Positions 12,715 through 61,758 of a stretch of DNA of 64,000 bases are shown here, in pieces. The DNA is from Escherichia phage ESCO13: sequence record NC_047770.1; one strand, given 5' to 3'. The notes beneath the pieces were generated by a model that searched no databases, was not told where the DNA came from, and was given only the letters and a program-made list of their open reading frames with translations. The position numbers and the translations under genes were made by a program. The first letter of the stretch is position 1. Each line of letters opens with the position of its first letter.

Positions 12715-12737
12715 AAAAAAGGGAGCAATAAGCTCCC
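12715..12737 (-). terminator. Rho-independent terminator (minus strand)
   Basis: GGGAGC-AATAA-GCTCCC hairpin (12721-12737) followed on the minus strand by TTTTTT (12720-12715), just after the stop at 12744. Confidence 0.6.
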
Positions 12738-12743
12738 TGATTA

Positions 12744-13703
12744 TTAGATTCCAATAATAGTTGCTGCTCGTTTATCTTTGGATCTGGTGTTTGCTCTACT
12801 ACGTGACAAACCTCCACAAGATTCACAACGAATGATATCGAAAGAACTTACCGCAGTGTGGTATTGCTTACCAGTAACAACGTGAACATGATCACTGCCG
12901 CAACGAGAACAACGGACTTTCTCATCTGGGTAATAAGCGGATAAGTTAGGATGCTGTGGAATCCACGGAAGGATTTTCATATACAAATCACGGAGTGAAA
13001 CAACATCACCGTCATTGTAAATCTGCATACGTTCAAAAGCATCACGATCACCTTCACAACATGCTTTCCATAAAGGGAACCCCTCGTTATCCAGTTTTTC
13101 ACTTTCTGTTTCGAAATATGCTCCCATTTCTTTAAGGGAGTTGGAAGGAAGTGCAAATTGTTTCTTAGCTGCCTTCAATGTATCAACAACTACATAATTA
13201 GAAGGAGGAGCCATATCGTGATATGCAAATCGTTGGTTAATGTATGCACGGTCAAACTTATATCCGTTGTGTGCCACAACTACATCTGCCTCATTCAGAA
13301 GGTTCCAAAGATCTTGGCAAAGCTCCCAATCATCTGTATGATCAATATCAAAAAGAGGATAAGAAGACAAGTTCTTACCTTCCACTTCACCAGTATACAG
13401 GTCGGCAGAAGAGTAAGATAACAAATAACCCCTACGAATTACTTGATCTGGAGAAATGAAGGCTTTGAATCGACGGAAAGTATATGCAATCTCTGGTGCA
13501 GTTTCAACATCAATAATTTTAATAACTGGTTGTTTCTTTTTAACTGGCTCTTGTTTACTTGCACCGAAACGTGCAAGGAAATCATTTACTGTGCTTTTTC
13601 TTGTCGGGCTACCTAAAACAATTGCTGCAATATTGCGAGAAGACATACCCTCTGCACTCATACTAAGGATATCTGCTTTCTGCTCTTCTGTTAATCTGCT
13701 CAC
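12744..13703 (-). CDS. Putative HTH-containing DEDD-type 3'-5' exonuclease with C-terminal zinc ribbon
   Basis: 319 aa; N-terminal HTH-like segment, exonuclease-like blocks IIDVETAPE, VVAHNGYKFDRAYI, YNDGD, and C-terminal CSRCG...CESCGG. Confidence 0.45.
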   Translation of the reverse strand: MSRLTEEQKADILSMSAEGMSSRNIAAIVLGSPTRKSTVNDFLARFGASKQEPVKKKQPVIKIIDVETAPEIAYTFRRFKAFISPDQVIRRGYLLSYSSADLYTGEVEGKNLSSYPLFDIDHTDDWELCQDLWNLLNEADVVVAHNGYKFDRAYINQRFAYHDMAPPSNYVVVDTLKAAKKQFALPSNSLKEMGAYFETESEKLDNEGFPLWKACCEGDRDAFERMQIYNDGDVVSLRDLYMKILPWIPQHPNLSAYYPDEKVRCSRCGSDHVHVVTGKQYHTAVSSFDIIRCESCGGLSRSRANTRSKDKRAATIIGI

Positions 13704-14389
13704 TCTGCCTCCTGTTGTGAGATGTATGACTGAAGCATACTCTCAAATGTTGTATCGTCATTATCCCAGCGTTTCATGTATACCAACTGGAAAATTGTTT
13801 CTATCCATTCATCTGTTGTCATATGGACTTCTTCTCCATCCCAAGAAGTAAAATTAACACCATCTGGGAACCACGAGTAGTAAGTATCTTTAACTGTTTG
13901 GAAAAGCTCTGCTTGAGTTTTACAAGCTGAAAGAAGATTAAAACAAGTAATATCTCCAAACTTAATATCAAAATCTTGATAAGGTCGGATACTATCTGTT
14001 TTATCTCCCATTAGCATCTGATAGGCTAACCAATAACTTCCCCAACCTTTAACTTCTTTCTTTTTACCTTTATCTACGATCCATATGTCGCCAATAGACT
14101 CGTCAATAAGAATTATATCTGGATTTTTAAATACTCCATCCTCTTTGTAGAAATTAAAAAGGATACTAGGAGTATGTAAACTATCTTTATCTATAGACAC
14201 TACAATATAAGAAAATTTACCCGTCCTTTTATAATCTTTATAACCTTGGAAACCATACTTCTCTAACTCATCGTCAGCCTCTATTACAGTAACAACATCA
14301 CCATTGTGGAACTCCACAAGATAATCTTTGGTTTCTGAAAGCTGAAGTGGTTTGATATCTAATCGTTCAGACTTATATTCTACAGGCAT
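13700..14389 (-). CDS. Hypothetical protein (possibly longer; see ATG-less upstream frame)
   Basis: 229 aa from ATG at 14389; same frame stays open for 147 more codons upstream to the TAA at 14833-14831 with no ATG/GTG/TTG. Confidence 0.45.
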   Translation of the reverse strand: MPVEYKSERLDIKPLQLSETKDYLVEFHNGDVVTVIEADDELEKYGFQGYKDYKRTGKFSYIVVSIDKDSLHTPSILFNFYKEDGVFKNPDIILIDESIGDIWIVDKGKKKEVKGWGSYWLAYQMLMGDKTDSIRPYQDFDIKFGDITCFNLLSACKTQAELFQTVKDTYYSWFPDGVNFTSWDGEEVHMTTDEWIETIFQLVYMKRWDNDDTTFESMLQSYISQQEAE

Positions 14390-14830
14390 TTTGAAGGCGT
14401 GTCTGAAAGTTTTTCCTACGCCAATAACTCCGCAATATTTTTCTAAACGTAGATGTTTTAGAATACCTAAGACTTTTGTTTTAGCTGCTTGGAAGGTGTG
14501 TCCGATATCTTCTGGCGGGTATTGCTTATCAATAATTTCGAACTCTTCCTTTGTGAAGGGACGTTTGTTTTTGGAGGCTCTTTCTGCATTTGTATCTCCT
14601 AGCCAACCTCCAATTTTAGTCTTACTTTTACCCCAAAACTCTGTCTTATTTTTAAATTCCTTTTGAGCACCTGAAGGGATGTGCTTCGCAATGATTGTTC
14701 TTTTCTCTAATGCAGACGCTGCTTGGAAAGCAATCTGATCATAATCAATTGCAGCTATTGTCTCTTCGTTGACATATAAATGAAGATCTTCAGGTTTAAT
14801 TAAAATATAACCGCTAATATTTCCCCCTAA

Positions 14831-15040
14831 TTATTCATCGTCATCCTCTGTTGAGAATGTTTTAGTATACGGACATTGACGACTTTTCGGGATTGCTATA
14901 ACTTCATCTTGGTTAGCGTTAGAATAGTAGCAATATTTTGTGTTGCCATTAACTTCAGAATCAGACAAGATTAAAGTAATTTGACCTGCTGCTACTGTGA
15001 AACTAAAAGCTAAAAGAACGACTGTCAGAATCTTTTTCAT
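14831..15040 (-). CDS. Small secreted/membrane-anchored protein with signal peptide
   Basis: 69 aa; MKKILTVVLLAFSFTVAAGQ signal-like N-terminus; AGGAGG SD before ATG 15040. Confidence 0.45.
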   Translation of the reverse strand: MKKILTVVLLAFSFTVAAGQITLILSDSEVNGNTKYCYYSNANQDEVIAIPKSRQCPYTKTFSTEDDDE

Positions 15041-15079: not shown

Positions 15080-15108
15080 ATAATATCATAACTAATCCCG
15101 CAAGTCAA
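15080..15108 (-). promoter_or_regulatory. Sigma70-like promoter (TTGACT-17-TATTAT) abutting a terminator
   Basis: Minus-strand -35 at 15108-15103 and -10 at 15085-15080; predicted start site falls inside the terminator stem. Confidence 0.45.
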
Positions 15109-26580: not shown

Positions 26581-26853
26581 ACACAACATTAAGAGCACTG
26601 TGATTGATCGTCGTATCCTGTGCACAAGGTCTGCTCGAAAGACAGTGTTCTTAGTATTGTGTTGATCACAAAAAGAGTCACCCGAAACTTGACCGGAGTA
26701 GGGTTGGATGGGGCAAAATGAGAAGCGGCTCTCCCATCGACAGCAACGAAGAATAATATTTGACTTTGGTTTTGTATTATTTTAAGTTAGCTTACCGAAC
26801 GTAGGGCTAGTCACCCAACGGGATACTCGTCACTGTCCCAATCAATAAAAGTC

Positions 26854-26883
26854 TTGACAACAAATAGTAAAATGTAGTATAGT
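26854..26883 (+). promoter_or_regulatory. Candidate internal promoter (TTGACA-18-TATAGT)
   Basis: TTGACAACAAA box then TATAGT, 12 nt before tRNA-Gly. Confidence 0.4.
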
Positions 26884-26894
26884 AAATATATATG

Positions 26895-26968
26895 GCGTTC
26901 TTGGTGTAGCGGTAGCATTCCGTCCTTCCAAGTCGGCGGCACGAGTTCGATCCTCGTAGAACGCTCCA
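26895..26968 (+). tRNA. tRNA-Gly (anticodon TCC)
   Basis: Acceptor GCGTTCT/AGAACGC, anticodon loop CTTCCAA, T-loop TTCGATC, encoded CCA. Confidence 0.75.
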
Positions 26969-27066
26969 AATTATTTAATAAAGGGTTGCCAGAAAACTTT
27001 CTCTTTTACTCATGGTTTTCTCCTTCTCTCACACTTCTTCTGGTTGCCCTTCATTAAATGATTTAT

Positions 27067-27142
27067 TGGTTTGTAGTGTAGTCCGGTAGCACACGACACT
27101 TTGACTGTCGTAGGTTTGGTTCAAATCCAGACAGACCAGCCA
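27067..27142 (+). tRNA. tRNA-Gln (anticodon TTG)
   Basis: Anticodon arm CGACA-CTTTGAC-TGTCG; T-loop TTCAAAT; encoded CCA. Confidence 0.8.
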
Positions 27143-27235
27143 TATAACAAAGGTGAGTCACTACCTTAAGTGTGAAGTTAAAAACGAGGAGCCGCCGAAC
27201 ACTTTCTTTTGCGGTGTACCTTTAGAATGTTATCA

Positions 27236-27312
27236 CGGGACGTAGCACAGCTTGGTAGTGCGCTCGCTTTGGGAGCGAGAGGTCGAGTGTTCGAATCACT
27301 CCGTCCCGACCA
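27236..27312 (+). tRNA. tRNA-Pro (anticodon TGG)
   Basis: Anticodon arm CTCGC-TTTGGGA-GCGAG; T-loop TTCGAAT; encoded CCA. Confidence 0.85.
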
Positions 27313-27318
27313 ATTAAA

Positions 27319-27392
27319 TGTTTCGTAGTTCAATGGTAGAACCCACGACTGATAATCGTGAGACACAAGTTCGATTCTTGTCGAAACAACCA
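27319..27392 (+). tRNA. tRNA-Ile (anticodon GAT)
   Basis: D-arm GTTC-AATGGTA-GAAC, anticodon arm CACGA-CTGATAA-TCGTG, encoded CCA. Confidence 0.85.
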
Positions 27393-27394
27393 GT

Positions 27395-27464
27395 TTCCCG
27401 TTAGACTTACAGGATAAGAGTTCCACAGCTTATTGTGATGCTGGTTCGAATCCAGCACGGGATA
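27395..27464 (+). ncRNA. tRNA-like element with truncated anticodon arm
   Basis: Acceptor with 1-72 T.T mismatch, normal D- and T-arms, but only 16 nt where anticodon arm plus variable loop need about 21; no encoded CCA. Confidence 0.4.
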
Positions 27465-27470
27465 CATAAT

Positions 27471-27549
27471 AGCGGGATAGAGGAGTCTGGTCGTCCTCGC
27501 CAGTTTCATATGCTGGAGATCATCGGTTCAAATCCGATTCCCGCCTCCA
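27471..27549 (+). tRNA. tRNA with anticodon CAT, initiator-like features
   Basis: Anticodon loop TTCATAT; A1.C72 mismatch at acceptor end and A11:U24 pair; T-arm ATCGG-TTCAAAT-CCGAT resembles E. coli tRNA-fMet; encoded CCA. Confidence 0.7.
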
Positions 27550-33370: not shown

Positions 33371-34486
33371 GTGGCAAATACATATTTAACTAACGTAGAC
33401 TTTTCTGGAAAAGCTACGGAAGAGTCACTAGGTGCTCATATTGCTTACACTTTTGATTTTCAAGGTGGAGCGGCATCTGGTTATAATACCCCCCTTTTAT
33501 TTAAGTCAGACGGATCTCCAGACATAACTTTTGAAAAGTTAGAAGCTCTCACTAAAATGGGAGAAGATGTTACAGAGTTACGTAAAAGCTATATTCAACA
33601 AGTGATGGATCGCATTTCTGAAAAAGTGCGTGAAAAATTTGAAGCTGGTTGGGATTGGGTTTACGTTATTGATGCTGACTTCGATGCGAACGTTGCAATT
33701 TTCTGTTCAGATAACGGTATGTTCTCTGTTGGCTTTAAAGTTGACGGACTGAATGTTGAAGTTGAAGAGGTTGCTAAACCTGTTGTTCGTGTTACTGATT
33801 ATCAAGTTGTTGATGGTGATGTAATGATCTCCATTGATTTCTTTGAGGACGTTTTAGACGATGCTTTGAGTAATCTCGTTAAGAGTTCCTTGAAACAAAG
33901 TCAAGTTAAAGATTATTTAGTGAAAGCTCACGCTAAAGCTAATACAAACTCTGTGGATGCAGAGGCTAACCCCGCAGGTGATAAATCTGCAAACACAACT
34001 GGAATCAATAAAGGAGAAACCCCTTTGGAAAATATCAACAAAGAAGAATTCCTGAAATCTGCTGAATTCCAAGAACTGATGAAAGCACAGATCGCTGAAG
34101 CTGTAGAAAAAGCAGCCGCAGATGCACGTGCAGCCGCAGAACTTGAAGCACAGGAAAAAATCGCTAAGGCAGAACAGGAAGCAGAAGAACTTCGTAAAGC
34201 TGAACAAGCTCGTATCGAAGAAGAATATACAACTGTTGTTAAATCCTATTCTTTCGTAGAAGAAGACAAAGTTGAAGCTCTCGTTAAATATCTGGTAGAC
34301 AATAAAGATATCGCTGAAACTATCGTCAAAGCATTCGAAAAAGCACGTGCAGAAGTGGACGCAGTTAAGAAAGAATTTGGAGCAGAACGTGGTGTTGATG
34401 TGATCAATACTCAACCTGTAGCTAAATCTTCTTCTGAACTGATTAGTCAGAAAGCTGCTGAACTTAAAAAAGCCCAGAAACAATAA
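33371..34486 (+). CDS. Scaffolding protein
   Basis: 371 aa; long A/E/K-rich coiled-coil segment; immediately upstream of decoration and capsid genes. Confidence 0.55.
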   Translation: MANTYLTNVDFSGKATEESLGAHIAYTFDFQGGAASGYNTPLLFKSDGSPDITFEKLEALTKMGEDVTELRKSYIQQVMDRISEKVREKFEAGWDWVYVIDADFDANVAIFCSDNGMFSVGFKVDGLNVEVEEVAKPVVRVTDYQVVDGDVMISIDFFEDVLDDALSNLVKSSLKQSQVKDYLVKAHAKANTNSVDAEANPAGDKSANTTGINKGETPLENINKEEFLKSAEFQELMKAQIAEAVEKAAADARAAAELEAQEKIAKAEQEAEELRKAEQARIEEEYTTVVKSYSFVEEDKVEALVKYLVDNKDIAETIVKAFEKARAEVDAVKKEFGAERGVDVINTQPVAKSSSELISQKAAELKKAQKQ

Positions 34487-34925: not shown

Positions 34926-35927
34926 ATGCCAGCAGTAATTTTAGATCAGGTTGTAGATTTCAGCCCTATGATCGAACTTCAGGATTCCCCTGATACACTG
35001 ATTGCCAGCCTGAATCTGTTCAGTGTTGACTATCATTCAACTACCGCTATTGAAATCGGTAAAGAAAAAGCTGAAGATGCTCTGATCTCCGCTCGTGAGC
35101 GTGGTGGTGAGCGTAACTTCCTGACCATGAAAAATCCAGAACTGAAAGCGTTCCGCATTCCGTTCTTCCCTCTGGATAAAAACATCAAAGCTCAAGATAT
35201 TCAATCTTTCCGTAGCTTTGCAATGGCAGGAATCAATGACTCTCTGCGCACAGACGCTGAAGTTGTTAACCGTTATATGTCCCAGATTCTGCGTGACGTA
35301 GCAAAAACCAAAGAGAAAATCTTTGCAGAAGCAGTTATGGGTCGTGCCTATAACGGCGTAGGTGGTGCAGCTAACTCTGCATACAACTGGTATACCGAGT
35401 GGAATGCTACCCAGAAATCTGTTGCTGTAGACTTTGCTTCTACCACTGTTTCTCCAGCAGCCACTATCGAACAAGAAGCTCGTGCTTACATCATCGATAC
35501 TAAACAAGATGGCTCTACCGCTACCCGTATCGTAGCTCTGTGTTCTCGTGAATTTTTCGCATCTCTGGTTAACTCTCCATTTGTTCGCCAGGCGTATCAG
35601 TATTTCCAGGGAACTCCTAACCTTCTGCGTGACCGCCTTAGCGGTAACATGGATGTTCAGGTGTTCGAATGGAACGGTGTAACTTACATTGAAGATATCC
35701 ACGGTAACATCCCTGCTGGTGAAGCATATGTTCTGCCTATGGGTATCGAAGGTATGTTCCAGGCGCACTACGCTCCTGCGGATACTCCAGAACTGGCTAA
35801 CACCCAGGCTCGTGAACTGTATACCTTCATGATCAGCCAGCACCGCACTATTCAGCTTCAGTCTGAATTCTCGCTGCTCGCAGTTAACACCCGTCCAGAA
35901 CTGGTAGTTAAACTGACTACGGCTTAA
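34926..35927 (+). CDS. Major capsid protein (lambda gpE-like)
   Basis: 333 aa; C-terminal ANTQARELYTF block matches lambda gpE GNTQARGLRTY; followed by a strong terminator. Confidence 0.75.
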   Translation: MPAVILDQVVDFSPMIELQDSPDTLIASLNLFSVDYHSTTAIEIGKEKAEDALISARERGGERNFLTMKNPELKAFRIPFFPLDKNIKAQDIQSFRSFAMAGINDSLRTDAEVVNRYMSQILRDVAKTKEKIFAEAVMGRAYNGVGGAANSAYNWYTEWNATQKSVAVDFASTTVSPAATIEQEARAYIIDTKQDGSTATRIVALCSREFFASLVNSPFVRQAYQYFQGTPNLLRDRLSGNMDVQVFEWNGVTYIEDIHGNIPAGEAYVLPMGIEGMFQAHYAPADTPELANTQARELYTFMISQHRTIQLQSEFSLLAVNTRPELVVKLTTA

Positions 35928-35948
35928 CAGAACTCTGTTAATATTAGA

Positions 35949-35980
35949 GGCTCGTCCGTGATGGGCGAGCCTTTTCTGTT
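35949..35980 (+). terminator. Rho-independent terminator after capsid gene
   Basis: GGCTCG...CGAGCC stem (35949-35971) followed by TTTTCTGTTT. Confidence 0.65.
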
Positions 35981-36011
35981 TACAATAAGAGTTTACAATG
36001 AGGAGATTGAT

Positions 36012-36356
36012 ATGTCAAACCCAGAATTGAAACGTTACTTTAGTTATCACGAAATGATTCGTGATTTCGAATCGCTTTCACCACTGATTGATGCTGATAA
36101 AACATTAGTATCTGCGCCACCAATGTCTTTCTATCTGAAAGATGGTCGTATTGCATTAGGTGGAAACTTCATTCACTTCCTCACGCGTTTGAGAGAAGAA
36201 ACAGGTATTCTTGTGCATCCTTTTGCAAGTGAAGAACACATGGGTTACTATCTTGTAAGTTACGAAGACTATGCACCTGTAAAAATCAAAGAAGAAGTTT
36301 TAAAAGTAGAAGCGGTAGACACTCCAGCTAAAAAACGTTCCCTTCGTAAAAAATAA
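36012..36356 (+). CDS. Hypothetical head/neck protein
   Basis: Track ORF from 35958; ATG at 36012 with GAGGAG SD lies beyond the terminator. Confidence 0.4.
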   Translation: MSNPELKRYFSYHEMIRDFESLSPLIDADKTLVSAPPMSFYLKDGRIALGGNFIHFLTRLREETGILVHPFASEEHMGYYLVSYEDYAPVKIKEEVLKVEAVDTPAKKRSLRKK

Positions 36357-54660: not shown

Positions 54661-55722
54661 ATGGCGAAGCCAATATATTATCCTGACTGGGCTACACAAA
54701 CTGTAACGCTCCCAGGAACTTTAAACACAAACAAAATTAGACCTAAAGAAACCATCCGCACAGTTGGTATGGATTATGGTCAAATCATGACTTGCGAAGA
54801 AATGAACTGGATTCTTAATAATATCGGTTTATGGATTCGCTATTTGGTGGATGACTTTCTTCCAACTTTACCTAATACCTACTTGCCTTTAGTGGGAACT
54901 AAGATTACAATGGCAGGTGATGCTACTGGTGAGGCTACTTGGAACGGTAACAAAGAAGTTACTTTATCTATCCAGGTTCAAGATAACAGTCATAATCACT
55001 TGTCGGCAAACATTACGGATGCCACTAGTTCAACAGTAACACCAAACGTGTTGGTAAAACGTGATGCGGGTGGTGCTATTTATGGTGGTGATGTTTATGT
55101 TAACGGTACTTCCACAACAGATCCTGCAACACTGTTCTTCAAAAACTTTGCAGGACAAACAAATGGTGAGATTTCTGCCGAGTATCAAAGCGGAGGTCAG
55201 CTTTACATCTATCGTAGAAATCCTAGCACAGGCAGTGTATCGGCAGGTGTTCGTTTATATGATGCAGGTTATGTTCTAATAGATAATCCAAGATCAAACA
55301 GTGGACAAGACACTTCTAACGGAAATGCTTTAGTTCGTTTAGATTATCTGAACTCTCGTTTGACTTCCCTTCAGAACACATTGCAGACGAATATTAACAC
55401 TGTTCAAAACAACTTGAATAATGTTAACAACAACCTCTCTTCTCGTATAAACAATGTAGAAAGTAATCATCAAAGTCAGATTACAAATAACTACAACTAT
55501 GCTAACGGAACCTTTGTAAGAGATATTCGTTATACTAGCCAAGGTGTGTATTATCCACCAGGGAACGAGGTTTCTTGGACTTATATCTGTTCTTCTGGTT
55601 ATGTTCTTTCTGGTATTATCGTACAGGAAACAGGACGTAGCTCTGCGGATAACATCGGTGGGGTTTACTTCAAACGCCTCCAGCGCAACGTTAACGGAAA
55701 CTGGTACGATATTGGAGGCTAA
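54661..55722 (+). CDS. Tail fibre protein
   Basis: 353 aa; central N/L/Q-rich coiled-coil; follows gpJ/gpI-like genes. Confidence 0.5.
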   Translation: MAKPIYYPDWATQTVTLPGTLNTNKIRPKETIRTVGMDYGQIMTCEEMNWILNNIGLWIRYLVDDFLPTLPNTYLPLVGTKITMAGDATGEATWNGNKEVTLSIQVQDNSHNHLSANITDATSSTVTPNVLVKRDAGGAIYGGDVYVNGTSTTDPATLFFKNFAGQTNGEISAEYQSGGQLYIYRRNPSTGSVSAGVRLYDAGYVLIDNPRSNSGQDTSNGNALVRLDYLNSRLTSLQNTLQTNINTVQNNLNNVNNNLSSRINNVESNHQSQITNNYNYANGTFVRDIRYTSQGVYYPPGNEVSWTYICSSGYVLSGIIVQETGRSSADNIGGVYFKRLQRNVNGNWYDIGG

Positions 55723-56268
55723 ATGATATTTACAAACTTTAAAAAATATATTCCTGAAGACCCTGAACTAAAAGAATTGGTAGAAGCAGAGAACATTCTT
55801 TTTCTTCGTTGCGATCAAGGTTACGACTGGTATGATTTACGTAGCACAGAATTCAATAACGATAAAATGAAAGTCGTTTTTGATGATCAAAATCGTATTG
55901 TGTTTTGGAATACTGATCCTACACTACTTTGCCCTGAAGATCTTTCTATAGCACAAGTAGACTTTAATATAGATACTTTTGAGGATATTAGGAACAAGGT
56001 TCTGGATTTAGAAACCTTAACTCTTAAAGATAAAGAGTATTCCCGTGAAGAGTTGATGACACAAGCTAGTGCAAAAATTCGCTCTTTACAAGAAACAGCG
56101 GTAGCACTTATAACACCTTTACAGTATGCTAAAGATTTAGAAATGGCTACTGAAGACGAATTAGCTTATCTTAAAAATCTTCAAGTTTATGTAGTTAAAC
56201 TAAATCGTGTTCCGCTTCAAAAAGACTATCCTTACGCTATAGATTGGCCTACATTACCGACAGAATAA
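55723..56268 (+). CDS. Putative tail fibre assembly protein
   Basis: 181 aa directly downstream of fibre gene (ATGA overlap). Confidence 0.35.
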   Translation: MIFTNFKKYIPEDPELKELVEAENILFLRCDQGYDWYDLRSTEFNNDKMKVVFDDQNRIVFWNTDPTLLCPEDLSIAQVDFNIDTFEDIRNKVLDLETLTLKDKEYSREELMTQASAKIRSLQETAVALITPLQYAKDLEMATEDELAYLKNLQVYVVKLNRVPLQKDYPYAIDWPTLPTE

Positions 56269-56616: not shown

Positions 56617-59600
56617 ATGGCAACATTCCCAACATATCCAGCAACGTCTCTCGAACAGGGCGTAGACCTGGTTATTTTCTCATCTAACCAACTCCATGAT
56701 GTTATTAATGGAAGTGCTACAGAGAGTATTGAAACAGAATCAGGGTTGATACCAACCCTGAGAAAAGCCCTTGTTGACAACTTTTTCTTTAAAAGCCCAT
56801 TGGATTGGGCGCAAGGCACAAACGAAACAGTTTTTAACCAACTACGTTATTTTCAGAATGGGGTATTGAGCGGTTATTATTATGCTCCTAATGCTACACT
56901 GGTAAACCCAATTCCTATGCAAGGGACTCCAGTAGGAGATAACAACTGGGTATTGTGGGGACTGAAGACAGAACAACTAGCAACAGAAGTCACCCCGTGG
57001 GTATACTCTGGTGCAACGGGTTATGAAACAGTAATTAGTCCTCCTTACATCTTTGATAGTGCTATTGTTACGATCAATGGTGTTATTCAGGTTCTGGGGG
57101 AAGCTTTCCGTATAGAAGATAGTAAGATCATCTTATCTGAACCTTTGGGACACGATCCTGCAACAGGACTACCAAACAAGCTTTTTGCTTATATTGGTAA
57201 AATCGTAGCTTCAGCAGATACAGATCCTAATCTAGAGAACCGTCTTGTTAGTTTAGAAACAAAAACGGAAGAACTAACAGAAAGCATGGATAAAGTCCCT
57301 CTGCAAACTATTGCTCGTAAATATGGTTTGTTAGATGACGAGGTGGCTTACGCAACAGCAGGTCAATCGTTAACAGGGATTAAAGCTCTGTATGATCCAG
57401 TAGCACAGTCTTCCTACACATTACCTCCTAACATCACAGGAACTTTAACATCCTTGTCTGTTTCTGGAGTAATGACTTATTCTGGGGGGTCTGTAGATCT
57501 TTCTGCACTAGCTGTTGAACGTGGACAGTTTGTTCATTTGCCTACAAGCTTTGGTAATAACGTAACTCTGACAGCTAAAAATCAGACGATTGGACGTGGT
57601 GCTGGTCGTTATCGTTGGGCTGGAAGTTTACCAAAAAGTATTTTGGCCTCCGATACATTGGAGACAAGCGGTGGATTAGGTCCAAATGCATGGGTTCTGA
57701 CCAATACAGAAGGACTGTTAACCCCTCGTGGTGGAACATACAACGATTTATTCGATGTTGTCTACTTGTCAGAATTTGCTAACAACACAACAACATATAC
57801 CACACCAGAAGCAGCTTTCCAAGCGGCACTGTTAGCAGCAAAAGCTTCGAAAAGCAAGATTCTCGATGCTTACGGTTGCGATATGACTTTCACGACAAGC
57901 TCTTTTGATATTCAAGGTATCACTTTGCGTGGGGGTGTGTTCCGTGGTCAACGCGACTATCGTGTGCAAAATGCTACAGTAGAAGGCACAACTTTCCGTA
58001 ACTCTCGTGTTATGTATTGGGGTGGTGCTGTGCGCATGTTCGATTGTTTGTGGGACGGTGCTCCTCGCGCAGGTCAAGTTGGTAGCTTGGTATTCCAAGG
58101 CAACCCAATATCAGGTACTTTTGAAATTGATAACTGTACTTTTAAAAACGGGTTGTATGGCATCCTTCAACAAGGAACAGGGGAACCAGTAACACATGGT
58201 GTCTTCCGTAACCTTACCTTCATGGACATGCAAGGTGATGCAATAGAACTGAACGTCATCAATAAACATTATGACGATGGTTGTGTGATTGAGAATATTT
58301 ACCTGTCTAATATCGATGGGACTAACGCTCCTATTCCTCTGTCCAACTGGGGTATCGGTATCGGTGTAGCTGGTAAAGGACCATATGGTTACGGAATACC
58401 TGATGATCAATATTGCAAGAATATTACAATTCGTAACGTTTTTGCAAAACGTTGTCGTCAGATTGTCCACGTAGAAGTTGGTCGTAATATCTCTATCGAA
58501 AACATTCATGGCGATCCAGACCAAACTGTATCTGTTGGGACAGGTTTGGCAACTGGCGCAGTTGTAATGTATGGAAGTAAAGACTTTACGATTGATGGTG
58601 TTTATGGAGAGCCTAAAACAGACGGTAGCACACTTGCAAGTAATATCCGTATGATTTATTTGGAGTGGGGAACTAACGCAGTTCTGGACGAAGAGGGTAA
58701 TCCGGTAGTTCCGGCACAGGGTAGACCTTCAAATCCATGCTTTAACTATTCTGTTCGTAACATTCACACCAAAACTGGGCGTGTTTTTGCGGGAGTTTCC
58801 GCTGGGCCAGGTTATGAAAACAGAGTTAGCTTTGAAAATATTCGTTGCGCCGCATTGCAGTTGTTCGGTATAGCTTCTTGGCTTTCAATGTCTAACATCA
58901 CCTGTAATATCTTCGATTGTGTTGGTCAACCTGAATCTGGTCCAGGGACATTTTATGATGGATTCTTCCGTAGAGAAAAATCTGTTCTTGAAATGGTTAA
59001 CGTAAACTGTTACCCAGATGGCAAGACGATGGTTACTGGTCGTCCACAGTGGAGCCGTTGCCGTTACTCGGATATTCATCGTGTCAACTGTAATGTTGAA
59101 GCTAATATGTATACCAATATCGCAGGTGGTATTGGAGCTATTGTAGGGACAACGGGCAAAGTTTATTACTTAGAGCCTAATCCTAGTCGAAACATTGATG
59201 GAATGCATTTCCCAACGGGGAAAGAGTTTGACAAAGGGGATATGATAGTCAAGGCGGATAATACGTTCTTCCTTGTAACAACAAGTGGGGCATATATTCC
59301 AGATATCCCAGCTTTCGGTATTCGAGCTACACAGGCAGGAGATACCTTCCTGACACAGAACTTGACTCCTAACGGGACAGCAACAAATGCTTCTTGGTTG
59401 TATCATTACCCTCTGTCAGCAGGGACACGTATCCGTATTCCTGGTGCTGGTGTAGGTGGAGCAGATTTGGACACAGTTATTACTCGTGCACCTTATCAAG
59501 ATAATGATACGTGGACTAACCCAGTTAAAATAGACATTGCAGATCCAATTGTAACGCCTACAAGTGCTGGAGTTAGAATTAAAACCATACCTAATGATTC

Positions 59601-59670
59601 CAGTAATGTTTCTGTAGGTAATACTGCGGTTATTCGCCCAACGCCAGTAGTAGATGTGCCAACAACCTAA
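56617..59670 (+). CDS. Tailspike with right-handed beta-helix (pectate-lyase-like) domain
   Basis: 1017 aa; repetitive Gly/Asn/Val-rich strand pattern of parallel beta-helix; followed by terminator-like hairpin. Confidence 0.55.
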   Translation: MATFPTYPATSLEQGVDLVIFSSNQLHDVINGSATESIETESGLIPTLRKALVDNFFFKSPLDWAQGTNETVFNQLRYFQNGVLSGYYYAPNATLVNPIPMQGTPVGDNNWVLWGLKTEQLATEVTPWVYSGATGYETVISPPYIFDSAIVTINGVIQVLGEAFRIEDSKIILSEPLGHDPATGLPNKLFAYIGKIVASADTDPNLENRLVSLETKTEELTESMDKVPLQTIARKYGLLDDEVAYATAGQSLTGIKALYDPVAQSSYTLPPNITGTLTSLSVSGVMTYSGGSVDLSALAVERGQFVHLPTSFGNNVTLTAKNQTIGRGAGRYRWAGSLPKSILASDTLETSGGLGPNAWVLTNTEGLLTPRGGTYNDLFDVVYLSEFANNTTTYTTPEAAFQAALLAAKASKSKILDAYGCDMTFTTSSFDIQGITLRGGVFRGQRDYRVQNATVEGTTFRNSRVMYWGGAVRMFDCLWDGAPRAGQVGSLVFQGNPISGTFEIDNCTFKNGLYGILQQGTGEPVTHGVFRNLTFMDMQGDAIELNVINKHYDDGCVIENIYLSNIDGTNAPIPLSNWGIGIGVAGKGPYGYGIPDDQYCKNITIRNVFAKRCRQIVHVEVGRNISIENIHGDPDQTVSVGTGLATGAVVMYGSKDFTIDGVYGEPKTDGSTLASNIRMIYLEWGTNAVLDEEGNPVVPAQGRPSNPCFNYSVRNIHTKTGRVFAGVSAGPGYENRVSFENIRCAALQLFGIASWLSMSNITCNIFDCVGQPESGPGTFYDGFFRREKSVLEMVNVNCYPDGKTMVTGRPQWSRCRYSDIHRVNCNVEANMYTNIAGGIGAIVGTTGKVYYLEPNPSRNIDGMHFPTGKEFDKGDMIVKADNTFFLVTTSGAYIPDIPAFGIRATQAGDTFLTQNLTPNGTATNASWLYHYPLSAGTRIRIPGAGVGGADLDTVITRAPYQDNDTWTNPVKIDIADPIVTPTSAGVRIKTIPNDSSNVSVGNTAVIRPTPVVDVPTT

Positions 59671-59676
59671 TGGAAT

Positions 59677-59703
59677 AGAGGGGGGGATTCCCCCTCTTCT
59701 TCC
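59677..59703 (+). terminator. Terminator-like GC hairpin after tailspike gene
   Basis: 8-bp stem AGAGGGGG/CCCCCTCT followed by a weak U-tract. Confidence 0.45.
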
Positions 59704-59733
59704 AATAGAATGGTCTAATGATAGGAGAGATAA

Positions 59734-61758
59734 ATGAATTTAACAAGACCTAATAGTGCGATAGCCGATCTGGTAGAAGCTACTTATCGAAAACGTCGCA
59801 GCTTTGAGGCAGGTTTTACATTACGTAATTCCCGTGAAGTTTTGCTGTTAGCAGCAGAAGGGAATTATTACCAATGGAAAGGAACTTTTCCTAAAGTAGT
59901 TCCAGCAAACTCTACGCCAGCCACCACAGGTGGTATTTCTTCCCTTGCATGGCAAAATGTTGGGACCGCTGATGATATAGCAATTATCAATGCCAAGTTT
60001 ACGGCAGTGCAACAACAGATTAATGATTTGTCAGAAGCAATACCTGAAGCTGGTAAATCGGCTTATCAGATCGCACTTGATAATGGTTTTGTTGGAACAG
60101 AAGCCCAGTGGCTTGCTTCTTTGAAAGGAGATACTGGTGCTCAACTTAATATTAAGGGATCATTAGCAAGCACTAGTGAACTACCATCTACAGGTAACAT
60201 CGCAGGAGATGGTTATATCGTAGGTGATGTGATTTACGCTTGGGATGGTTCTGTTTGGAAACTTATTTCTTCTCTTGGACCAGAAGGGAAATCAGCTTAT
60301 GAGGTATGGTTGGCAGATGGTAATACAGGATCTGTTTATGACTTTCTTACCTCTATAAAAGGTGATAAAGGTGATGTTGGTCCTACAGGGCCACAGGGAG
60401 CACCTGGTGTTAACGCCAACGGTTTTGATTATCGTGGGGATTTACCTTCTACAAGTAACTTACCACAACCTAACTCTGAAAACGTAAGCCAAGCTTATTC
60501 TATCAATGGTAATCTTTATGTCTCTAATGGGACAGCTTGGGTCAACATGGGTAATATTGTTGGTCCTCAAGGTCCACAAGGTGAGGCAGGTAAAGACGGT
60601 CTTGATGGAACAGATGGAGATGAAGGGAAATCTGCATATCAAAGTTGGCTGGATGCTGGTAATGAAGGGACAGAAGTAGATTTTATTGCCTCACTTAAAG
60701 GTCCAAAAGGAGACAAGGGTGATCAAGGAGAGCGAGGTCCACAAGGTGAACTAGGTCCACAAGGACCAGTGGGTGCAACAGGATCAGGCTTAGAGATTAT
60801 CGGGGTTCTGAACAGTGAAGCTGAACTTCCTCCTACTGGAGAAGTAGGTGACGCATATAAAATTAATAATGATTTATATGTTTGGGTCCAAGATGCTACG
60901 GAATGGATGAATGTTGGCAGTCTTGGAGGAACATCAATTACAGCTAAAGGTCATGTTCCGAACAGTGAAGCTCTCCCTGTTTACAATAACTATGGTGATG
61001 CTTACTTAACTGAAGACACTAGTAATCTTTACATCTATACCTACGATCAAGACACCAATTCCGCATCTTTTGTTGACATGGGAAGTATTAAAGGCGACAA
61101 AGGTGAAAAAGGGGATAAAGGAGATAAGGGTGATCCTGGAACAAACGGAACCAACGGTACTGATGGGACCAACGGTAAGGATGGCGCACAGTGGTTTGTA
61201 GCAACAACTAATCCAGTCACAGGAGACGGTGTTATCAATGATTACGCCTTCAATACTACCACTGGAGCAGTGTTTAAGAAAACAGATTCTTCTACGTGGA
61301 CGCTTATAGGCACTCTTCCTAGTATACCAGAAGCCCCTCAAGACGGCTTGACGTATGGTCGGTCTGATGGAAACTGGATCGAAATATCAGGATCAGATCC
61401 TACGGAAGCTATAACACCAACTAGAGTTACAGCAGGTTTCATGGAACTTGAAACAACTACTGCCAACTCTGGAGCATCTTGGACTCCTTCTGGAACTTCC
61501 AATATGTATGTTGTTACAGTAACTGATGCTCTGACAGTTGGAGCATGGCCTGGTGTCACTGGCTCTACAAAACCTAAAGCATTTTCAGCAATGATTTATT
61601 TGATTCAAGATACAACGGGACACACGGTTACACTAGATGCGTCTTATGGAGCACTAAATGATACAGAAATAGCAACTACTGCTAACGCAGTAACAATTTT
61701 GCAATTAACGTATCCTGGTGTGGGTGATATCGTGGACATGGTTGTTGTAACACGATAA
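59734..61758 (+). CDS. Tail fibre with collagen-like Gly-X-Y tracts and GKSAY repeats
   Basis: 674 aa; three copies of GKSAY...WL..GN.G......SLKG.KGD plus GPQGPQGEAGKDG and GDKGEKGDKGDKGDPG tracts. Confidence 0.65.
   Translation: MNLTRPNSAIADLVEATYRKRRSFEAGFTLRNSREVLLLAAEGNYYQWKGTFPKVVPANSTPATTGGISSLAWQNVGTADDIAIINAKFTAVQQQINDLSEAIPEAGKSAYQIALDNGFVGTEAQWLASLKGDTGAQLNIKGSLASTSELPSTGNIAGDGYIVGDVIYAWDGSVWKLISSLGPEGKSAYEVWLADGNTGSVYDFLTSIKGDKGDVGPTGPQGAPGVNANGFDYRGDLPSTSNLPQPNSENVSQAYSINGNLYVSNGTAWVNMGNIVGPQGPQGEAGKDGLDGTDGDEGKSAYQSWLDAGNEGTEVDFIASLKGPKGDKGDQGERGPQGELGPQGPVGATGSGLEIIGVLNSEAELPPTGEVGDAYKINNDLYVWVQDATEWMNVGSLGGTSITAKGHVPNSEALPVYNNYGDAYLTEDTSNLYIYTYDQDTNSASFVDMGSIKGDKGEKGDKGDKGDPGTNGTNGTDGTNGKDGAQWFVATTNPVTGDGVINDYAFNTTTGAVFKKTDSSTWTLIGTLPSIPEAPQDGLTYGRSDGNWIEISGSDPTEAITPTRVTAGFMELETTTANSGASWTPSGTSNMYVVTVTDALTVGAWPGVTGSTKPKAFSAMIYLIQDTTGHTVTLDASYGALNDTEIATTANAVTILQLTYPGVGDIVDMVVVTR
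60052..61170 (+). repeat. Intragenic repeat region (three ~28-codon GKSAY modules and collagen-like triplets)
   Basis: Repeat modules begin near 60052, 60286 and 60625; Gly-X-Y tracts near 60361-60412, 60562-60627 and 61072-61170. Confidence 0.55.

Follow-up and report, generated by a model that had tools for sequence, protein, structure and literature searches.

We analyzed a 64,000-nucleotide stretch of the genome of Escherichia phage ESCO13 (NC_047770.1), referred to below as the window, and focused on positions 14390 to 14830 of its minus strand. This segment lies between an open reading frame (ORF) for a small signal-peptide protein and an ORF annotated as an exonuclease, and it consists of 147 open codons without a canonical start codon (ATG, GTG, or TTG). 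The features at the locus are as follows.

14831..15040, minus strand: upstream ORF of 69 amino acids with a signal peptide (SignalP note in the phi92 record), whose TAA lies 12 nucleotides before the ATT listed below
14822..14828, minus strand: Shine-Dalgarno sequence AGGGGGA, whose GGGGG core ends 4 nucleotides before the ATT
14816..14818, minus strand: proposed start codon ATT (AUU), the first near-cognate codon 3' of the Shine-Dalgarno sequence
14390..14830, minus strand: the 147-codon stretch, read here as 4 untranslated codons that hold the Shine-Dalgarno sequence, followed by exonuclease residues 1 to 143
14738..14746, minus strand: codons for D25-Y26-D27, at the end of strand beta-1 (from conservation and a structural model)
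14387..14389, minus strand: ATG (Met144), the start codon in annotations and an internal methionine in the reading proposed here
13700..14818, minus strand: proposed full-length gene (372 codons plus TGA) for a 5'-3' exonuclease/flap endonuclease of the T7 gp6/PHROG 107 type

The open frame and its proposed start

Translation and codon listing of positions 13700 to 14842 placed the 147 sense codons (14830-14390) between the TAA at 14833-14831 and the ATG at 14389. The run holds no stop codon and no ATG, GTG, or TTG, and it shares its reading frame with the upstream 69-residue ORF. An earlier note on this DNA had described the same start-less frame, open up to the TAA of the 14831-15040 gene, and its description proved correct. 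It had also stated that no other minus-strand ORF of at least 60 codons covers the stretch; indeed, only two were found there, of 40 and 30 amino acids, both out of frame. The other five frames of the 441 nucleotides contain 5 to 13 stops each. The note's view that such a run is unlikely to arise by chance is borne out by a probability of about 2e-4 for 147 stop-free codons (from the window's triplet frequencies) and by the absence of any stop-free outcome in 100,000 shuffles of the segment. The lack of ATG, GTG, and TTG among 147 sense codons is similarly improbable; with the 45 long ORFs of the window as the codon-usage reference, P is about 8e-4.

The window contains 94 stop-to-stop ORFs of 100 codons or more, and none comes close to this one in the length of its start-less leader; the runner-up measures 80 codons. 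Five other long start-less leaders (57 to 80 codons) occur, all on the minus strand (59416-59739, 55339-55767, 58111-58728, 33928-34245, and 35037-36014). A leader scan found none of these five to possess a Shine-Dalgarno sequence followed by a near-cognate codon; they are probably noncoding or overlap upstream genes.

The upstream TAA is followed immediately by TTAGGGGGAAAT-ATT-AGC-GGT-TAT. From the ATT at 14818-14816, the frame remains open for only 4 codons in the 5' direction, and in the 3' direction it runs for 143 codons free of ATG, GTG, and TTG. The predicted duplex between AGGGGGA and the 3' end of 16S rRNA has an energy of -9.3 kcal/mol, which is better than that of about 65% of the window's ORFs and is matched by 1% of random positions. 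The annotated ATG at 14389 is without a Shine-Dalgarno sequence (duplex energy, +0.4 kcal/mol). By reading of the sequence, ATG, GTG, and TTG are absent in every frame for about 55 nucleotides downstream of AGGGGGA; thus, this strong ribosome-binding site would be left without a start codon if it did not serve the ATT. If the AUU is decoded by initiator tRNA, the protein would begin M-S-G-Y-I-L-I-K.

Of the four explanations that the earlier note had listed without ranking them, a noncanonical start is therefore strongly supported, given the ATT with its Shine-Dalgarno sequence, the near-cognate codons in relatives, and the ATG or TTG in an outgroup (see below). Our preferred reading, to which we assign a probability of roughly 85%, is that the 147 codons comprise the N-terminal 143 residues of a 372-residue exonuclease of the flap endonuclease (FEN)/T7 gp6 type plus 4 untranslated codons of the ribosome-binding site and that the start is most likely the AUU at 14818-14816.

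The RNA around the start (121 nucleotides) is no more stable than shuffled sequences (z = 0.21), and no structural element is evident there. We scanned the window and the remaining ∼87 kb of the closest genome (MG065650; 150 kb) for other long ORFs that pair a strong Shine-Dalgarno sequence with a near-cognate start; none emerged, and the scan returned only weak, short candidates that are probably spurious. Because no other gene in these sequences shows the signature, the feature is specific to this gene.

Conservation of the protein and of its start region

The 376-residue stop-to-stop translation gave one continuous match to PHROG 107 ("exonuclease") over residues 14 to 371 (E value of 1e-55). 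When searched alone, the 147-residue extension also matched this profile (E value of 5e-7), on the segment directly before the one matched by the annotated part. The earlier note had raised the prospect that homologues in related phages form one longer gene, and this is what was found: tblastn retrieved 1,211 phage records, 899 of which span at least 80% of the full length. Full-length relatives keep an uninterrupted frame, with the exceptions of L036 (an early stop) and L041 (a contig end). We note that L036 (CYGL01000168.1) is a phi92-like contig in which the exonuclease ORF stops after 263 codons, which may represent an assembly error or a disrupted copy.

In an alignment of 16 relatives, the first 145 residues contain 25 invariant columns, including D25, Y26, D27, S35, E38, and H46. 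In 55 homologues with identities down to 30%, conservation of both D25 and D27 is still at least 90%. When the extension was compared with eight relatives, the proportion of nonsynonymous differences (pN) was 0.16 to 0.35 and that of synonymous differences (pS) was saturated at 0.68 to 0.84, similar to the rest of the gene. A pN value this far below a saturated pS indicates that the encoded protein is under strong purifying selection.

An AlphaFold2 model of the 372-residue protein had a mean predicted local distance difference test (pLDDT) score of 95.8, with the N-terminal 143 residues fully ordered. The model displays the PIN-like alpha/beta fold of 5'-nucleases, and a Foldseek fold comparison agrees with this assignment. 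Similarly, hhalign matched the T7 gene 6 exonuclease with 95% probability over the catalytic core and aligned the motifs R-x-P-x-YK-x-NR, E-x-DD, DKD, and GD-x-D with those of T7 gp6. Residues E180, D182, D183, D210, D212, D272, and D275 are invariant in the 55 homologues, as judged by sequence alignment rather than by superposition on a solved active site. Within the extension, the model places a strand at residues 16 to 25, ending at D25, and a helix at residues 26 to 37, such that beta-1 and D25/D27 all lie upstream of the annotated start. In FENs, the first metal-binding aspartate is located at the end of beta-1, and we take D25 and D27 to be the first, putative catalytic carboxylates of this fold. 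A product starting at Met144 would lack the first metal-binding aspartate and half of the central sheet.

Start codons were compared among relatives drawn from GenBank phages, IMG/VR, metagenomes, and contigs encoding database homologues. The homologous codon could be read in 31 distinct sequences (50 to 100% protein identity), where it is ATT (n = 15), ATC (n = 10), ATA (n = 5), or CTG (n = 1); none of the 31 has ATG, GTG, or TTG at this position. A GGAGG- or GGGGG-type Shine-Dalgarno sequence lies 4 to 5 nucleotides upstream throughout this set, with predicted duplex energies of -9.3 kcal/mol in the near-identical Phapecoctavirus and phiWec179 sequences and of -10 to -12.9 kcal/mol in other relatives. 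The exception is L041, which is truncated at a contig end and has a weaker AGGAAAG (-4.2 kcal/mol). In four relatives (L015, L026, L027, and L029), an in-frame TAA abuts the ATC (AGGAGGAGTAA-ATC-GGT-TAC); this leaves no room for an earlier start of the ORF. How far downstream the first canonical codon falls differs from lineage to lineage, ranging from 10 to 147 codons. Two homologues of 55 to 57% identity (P0025 and P0030) were initially candidates for ordinary ATG starters, a status that we rejected: their DNA contains a Shine-Dalgarno sequence and an ATT or ATA 9 codons upstream, the intervening N-terminal peptide is homologous (ITEEFKTIS and IPHKFNTIS versus ISKFETIS), and their ATG has no Shine-Dalgarno sequence.

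Over the 101 bp of the start region, 61 GenBank phage records show at least 99% identity, and the region is recognizable in 125; among the matches listed, identity reaches 100% in the 25 fully identical records. Escherichia phage ETEC-TG (L003; OR786310.1) differs in its Shine-Dalgarno run, which reads GGGGGG in place of GGGGG and leaves the ATT untouched. The extra G, which puts the upstream ORF out of frame with the exonuclease, may reflect either natural variation or a sequencing error in the homopolymer.

A Vequintavirinae outgroup (rV5, PBES02, ChuuTotoro, and others; 37 to 42% identity) has ATG or TTG at the same codon (orthologues checked at 5 of 9 loci). A G-Y motif after the start is common to the outgroup and the near-cognate clade (ATG-GGT-TAT versus ATC-GGT-TAC), yielding M-G-Y in the former and I-G-Y or I-S-G-Y in the latter. 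In a neighbor-joining tree, the near-cognate sequences form one monophyletic clade against the canonical outgroup, and Fitch parsimony counted 10 start-codon changes over the whole tree, mostly among the four near-cognate codons inside the clade. We conclude that the 147 codons are real coding sequence and part of the FEN fold, that the N terminus is positionally homologous to that of the ATG/TTG orthologues, and that both the Shine-Dalgarno sequence and the near-cognate codon are conserved.

Several observations weigh against this interpretation. With 4 nucleotides, the spacer is among the shortest that function, and further in-frame ATT codons follow closely at 14806 and 14800, either of which may, as far as the sequence shows, be the start. 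In L038, L045, and L046, a canonical ATG located 6 to 9 codons downstream is a possible start, though it is without a Shine-Dalgarno sequence. Pfam searches with the full protein and with both halves returned insignificant matches only, including PF02739 (a family recorded on distant homologues), and a profile-sequence search of the PDB with the 55-sequence alignment found no solved relative. Because neither search gave a significant result, the family assignment rests on PHROGs, hhalign, and fold comparison. Moreover, selection against ATG was not significant: finding zero ATG in ∼18 quasi-independent lineages has a probability of about 0.125 under drift, a consequence of the rarity of G at neutral third positions (within this gene, 10.9% of 4-fold third positions). 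Because an excess of nuclease may be harmful, selection could plausibly favor a weak start. Finally, the searchable literature yielded no N-terminus, ribosome-profiling, or reporter data for this gene and nothing specific on its start codon or on ATT starts in phages.

Routes of initiation and alternative explanations

In the proposed mechanism, the strong Shine-Dalgarno sequence would position the 30S subunit at the AUU, with which initiator fMet-tRNA would pair through a third-position mismatch, as in Escherichia coli infC and pcnB. Ribosomes finishing the upstream ORF, 12 nucleotides before the AUU, may also feed initiation. Synthesis of this potentially dangerous nuclease would be expected to be low and sensitive to IF3. 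AUU, AUC, AUA, and CUG are codons that IF3 (initiation factor 3) discriminates against. In published reporter data, these codons initiate at ∼1 to 2% of the level of AUG in E. coli (bioRxiv 10.1101/063800), and the four codons seen in the clade are exactly the set reported at this level. We infer the actual use of the AUU, as well as the expression level, the IF3 dependence, and the adaptive reason for such a start.

Termination-reinitiation would refine this picture rather than replace it, as the start codon is the same and only the route of ribosome delivery differs. Under this scenario, most of the exonuclease would come from ribosomes that end the upstream ORF, are held by the Shine-Dalgarno sequence, and restart at the AUU. 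The strength of the start codon would then have little effect, leaving the third base free to drift among U, C, and A. The upstream stop lies 8 to 13 nucleotides before the start in essentially every relative resolved, often as the TAG of TAGGAGG, and the same close spacing is kept in L045, where the upstream gene encodes an unrelated methyltransferase. The missing ATG is statistically compatible with neutral third-base drift, and reinitiation in E. coli is sensitive to both IF3 and IF2 (PMC2268962). However, tight gene packing is ordinary in phages, and the ATG/TTG outgroup orthologues have the same arrangement; thus, it is not specific to near-cognate starts. We regard a predominance of this route as possible, if somewhat unlikely.

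It is conceivable, though we consider it doubtful, that the weak start is a regulatory device rather than a tolerated defect. In one version, the arrangement UAGGAGG-N4-5-AUH would let post-termination ribosomes that have not yet undergone IF3 proofreading restart efficiently on a near-cognate codon, and exonuclease synthesis would depend strictly on whether the upstream ORF is translated. In the other, exonuclease output would climb as free IF3 drops relative to ribosomes during infection, providing an IF3-read timer for a nuclease that degrades host DNA or removes primers. If true, either version would constitute the first natural case of phage near-cognate initiation serving as a control element kept across a virus subfamily.

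The annotated 229-residue ORF may alternatively be a real or additional product, with the upstream stretch left untranslated. Its ATG at 14389 is used in all of the inspected GenBank annotations of close relatives and is the first canonical start in this lineage. That ATG, however, is not a conserved start, as the first canonical codons of relatives fall at widely different positions, and it has no Shine-Dalgarno sequence. Furthermore, the upstream 143 residues, which contain beta-1 and D25/D27, are strongly conserved as protein, and full-length orthologues with an ATG exist. We judge this explanation to be very unlikely, although a minor isoform from this ATG is conceivable.

Extremely improbable is a fusion of the signal-peptide protein to the exonuclease by readthrough of the TAA at 14831-14833, another of the options in the earlier note. 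The two ORFs do share a frame in this window, and a public protein database includes a 444-residue "fusion" protein (P0005). Among 22 resolved relatives, however, the upstream ORF is in frame 0 at 11 loci, in frame 2 at 9, and in frame 1 at 2; it is thus in a different frame in at least half of them, and some have an extra in-frame TAA. The single-nucleotide insertion in ETEC-TG already breaks the frame relation, and a cleavable signal peptide on a DNA nuclease would, by our reasoning, make no functional sense. We rejected P0005 (L044; Logan SRR30397360 contig) as a natural fusion: the contig has TAG where the protein has Q, and the entry is evidently a gene-calling artifact from a contig called with a TAG-recoded table.

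The last two options, a sequencing or assembly error and a recently inactivated gene that lost its ATG, have nothing in their favor beyond the missing canonical start and can be dismissed, as the same sequence occurs in dozens of independently sequenced isolates, the frame is intact and under purifying selection in lineages with saturated synonymous sites, the stretch holds near-invariant, putatively catalytic residues, and the noncanonical state is common to the whole clade, down to 50% protein identity.

Neighboring genes, public records, and known systems

Beyond the signal-peptide gene and the exonuclease, the following features surround the locus.

15108-15080, minus strand: sigma-70-like promoter TTGACT-17-TATTAT with an upstream TG (consensus scan only)
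15079-15056, minus strand: GC-rich hairpin with a T-run, ending at the Shine-Dalgarno sequence of the small ORF (consensus scan only)
12744..13703, minus strand: gene for a DEDDh-type exonuclease with a GTG start (a homologue has a precomputed Pfam PF13482 match)
12720..12738, minus strand: terminator-like hairpin after the DEDDh exonuclease gene (consensus scan only)

The TGA of the FEN-type exonuclease gene overlaps the GTG of the DEDDh exonuclease gene (GTGA, 13700-13703, minus strand), which suggests translational coupling of the two nucleases. The features together suggest one transcription unit that runs from the promoter at 15108 through the small ORF and the two exonuclease genes and ends at the 12720-12738 hairpin. 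The placement of a promoter directly followed by a terminator-like hairpin, upstream of the small ORF, is an odd arrangement. RdgC-like and MazG-like genes are located further upstream.

Elsewhere in the window, 10 tRNA genes occupy 25537-27549 on the plus strand, including tRNA-Ile(GAT) and two with the anticodon CAT. The first CAT tRNA (25537-25611) presumably resembles E. coli tRNA-Ile2 (ileX), and the second (27471-27549; 79 nucleotides) has an apparent A1xC72 mismatch atop its acceptor stem. A phage-encoded initiator tRNA for AUU was considered and rejected: by reading, both CAT tRNAs are without the initiator's three anticodon-stem G-C pairs.

The region is 98.5 to 100% identical to that of ∼63 phAPEC8-like phages (genus Phapecoctavirus, subfamily Stephanstirmvirinae). 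All five of the phAPEC8-like records inspected call only the 229-residue ORF from the ATG at 14389, as a "putative exonuclease," leaving a 441-nucleotide gap. Gene callers accept ATG, GTG, and TTG only, which accounts for the truncated annotation. Inside the N-terminal coding region of the exonuclease, two out-of-frame mini-ORFs (14467-14589, 40 amino acids, and 14599-14691, 30 amino acids; both minus strand) are listed as "hypothetical protein" in phAPEC8 (G377_gp266) and ETEC-TG (CDS0151 and CDS0152); these entries, which occupy the apparent gap, are almost certainly spurious. In phi92 (Justusliebigvirus), the annotated start of the homologue is a GTG that lies 32 codons into the frame, and the record remarks "No RBS identified; weak Prodigal statistics" (RBS, ribosome-binding site). 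The phiWec179 annotation begins at a TTG, 11 codons past the start proposed here. Homologues of 50 to 86% identity in a large protein database vary in length from 229 to 373 amino acids, a scatter that arises because each caller picks the first canonical codon. The lengths listed (229, 345, and 364 amino acids, among others) mostly leave out the putative first catalytic aspartates.

Some host labels in these records also look wrong. MG065650.1 ("UNVERIFIED: Campylobacter phage B15"; host, Campylobacter jejuni) is 100% identical to the exonuclease region over 1,701 nucleotides and is plainly a phAPEC8-like E. coli Phapecoctavirus. The records of the "Campylobacter phages" A145, A110a, and A12a likewise match E. 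coli phage genera.

In every GenBank record inspected, of the ∼125 that carry the start region, this core replication/recombination nuclease of the Stephanstirmvirinae appears in truncated form. The affected records include phAPEC8-like and phi92-like phages used in phage therapy work. The occurrence of AUU, AUC, AUA, and CUG at one orthologous position, in lineages whose synonymous divergence is saturated, provides a natural variant series for testing how near-cognate initiation depends on a strong Shine-Dalgarno sequence, upstream termination, and IF3. In addition, a conserved start-less N-terminal extension together with an orphan Shine-Dalgarno sequence offers a simple signature for finding similar genes.

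One close comparison is with the Vequintavirinae orthologues (rV5 ORF94, Cronobacter phage PBES02 ADU18_0070, and Serratia phage ChuuTotoro 00890), which belong to the same family at 37 to 42% identity over the full length. They share the N-terminal position, the G-Y after the start, a similar Shine-Dalgarno sequence, and the place directly after an upstream gene. In contrast to the gene described here, their start codon is ATG or TTG, and their annotations cover the entire protein (370 to 379 amino acids). Relative to T7 gene 6, T5 D15, and T4 RNase H of the FEN/5'-nuclease superfamily (PIN-like), the present protein is larger (372 amino acids) and has family-specific insertions in its N-terminal half.

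With regard to initiation, Nivinskas and colleagues reportedly described, in 1992, internal AUU initiation of T4 gene 26* in E. coli. There, too, E. coli ribosomes reportedly begin a phage protein at AUU; however, that start is internal and gives a second, shorter product, whereas the main product here would have the AUU as its sole start.

The closest mechanistic parallels are infC (IF3) and pcnB [poly(A) polymerase I] of E. coli. [quoted passage not shown] They are named as the only confirmed cases of noncanonical starts in this species (bioRxiv 10.1101/063800). As in infC and pcnB, a near-cognate AUU (AUC in some species) would be the sole start for the full-length product, is preceded by a Shine-Dalgarno sequence, and belongs to the class of codons that IF3 discriminates against. 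The AUU/AUC of infC is the target of IF3 autoregulation (PMC5499595). The present case differs in that it concerns a phage nuclease gene rather than a host translation or RNA factor, and an autoregulatory logic is not evident, as the product is not IF3. It also differs in that, within the clade, the codon varies between AUU, AUC, AUA, and CUG and in that the start here is predicted from sequence. Thus, a conserved near-cognate start in a full-length FEN-type exonuclease gene is a further example of infC/pcnB-type initiation, and it entails no new mechanism unless the coupling or IF3-timer scenario holds true.

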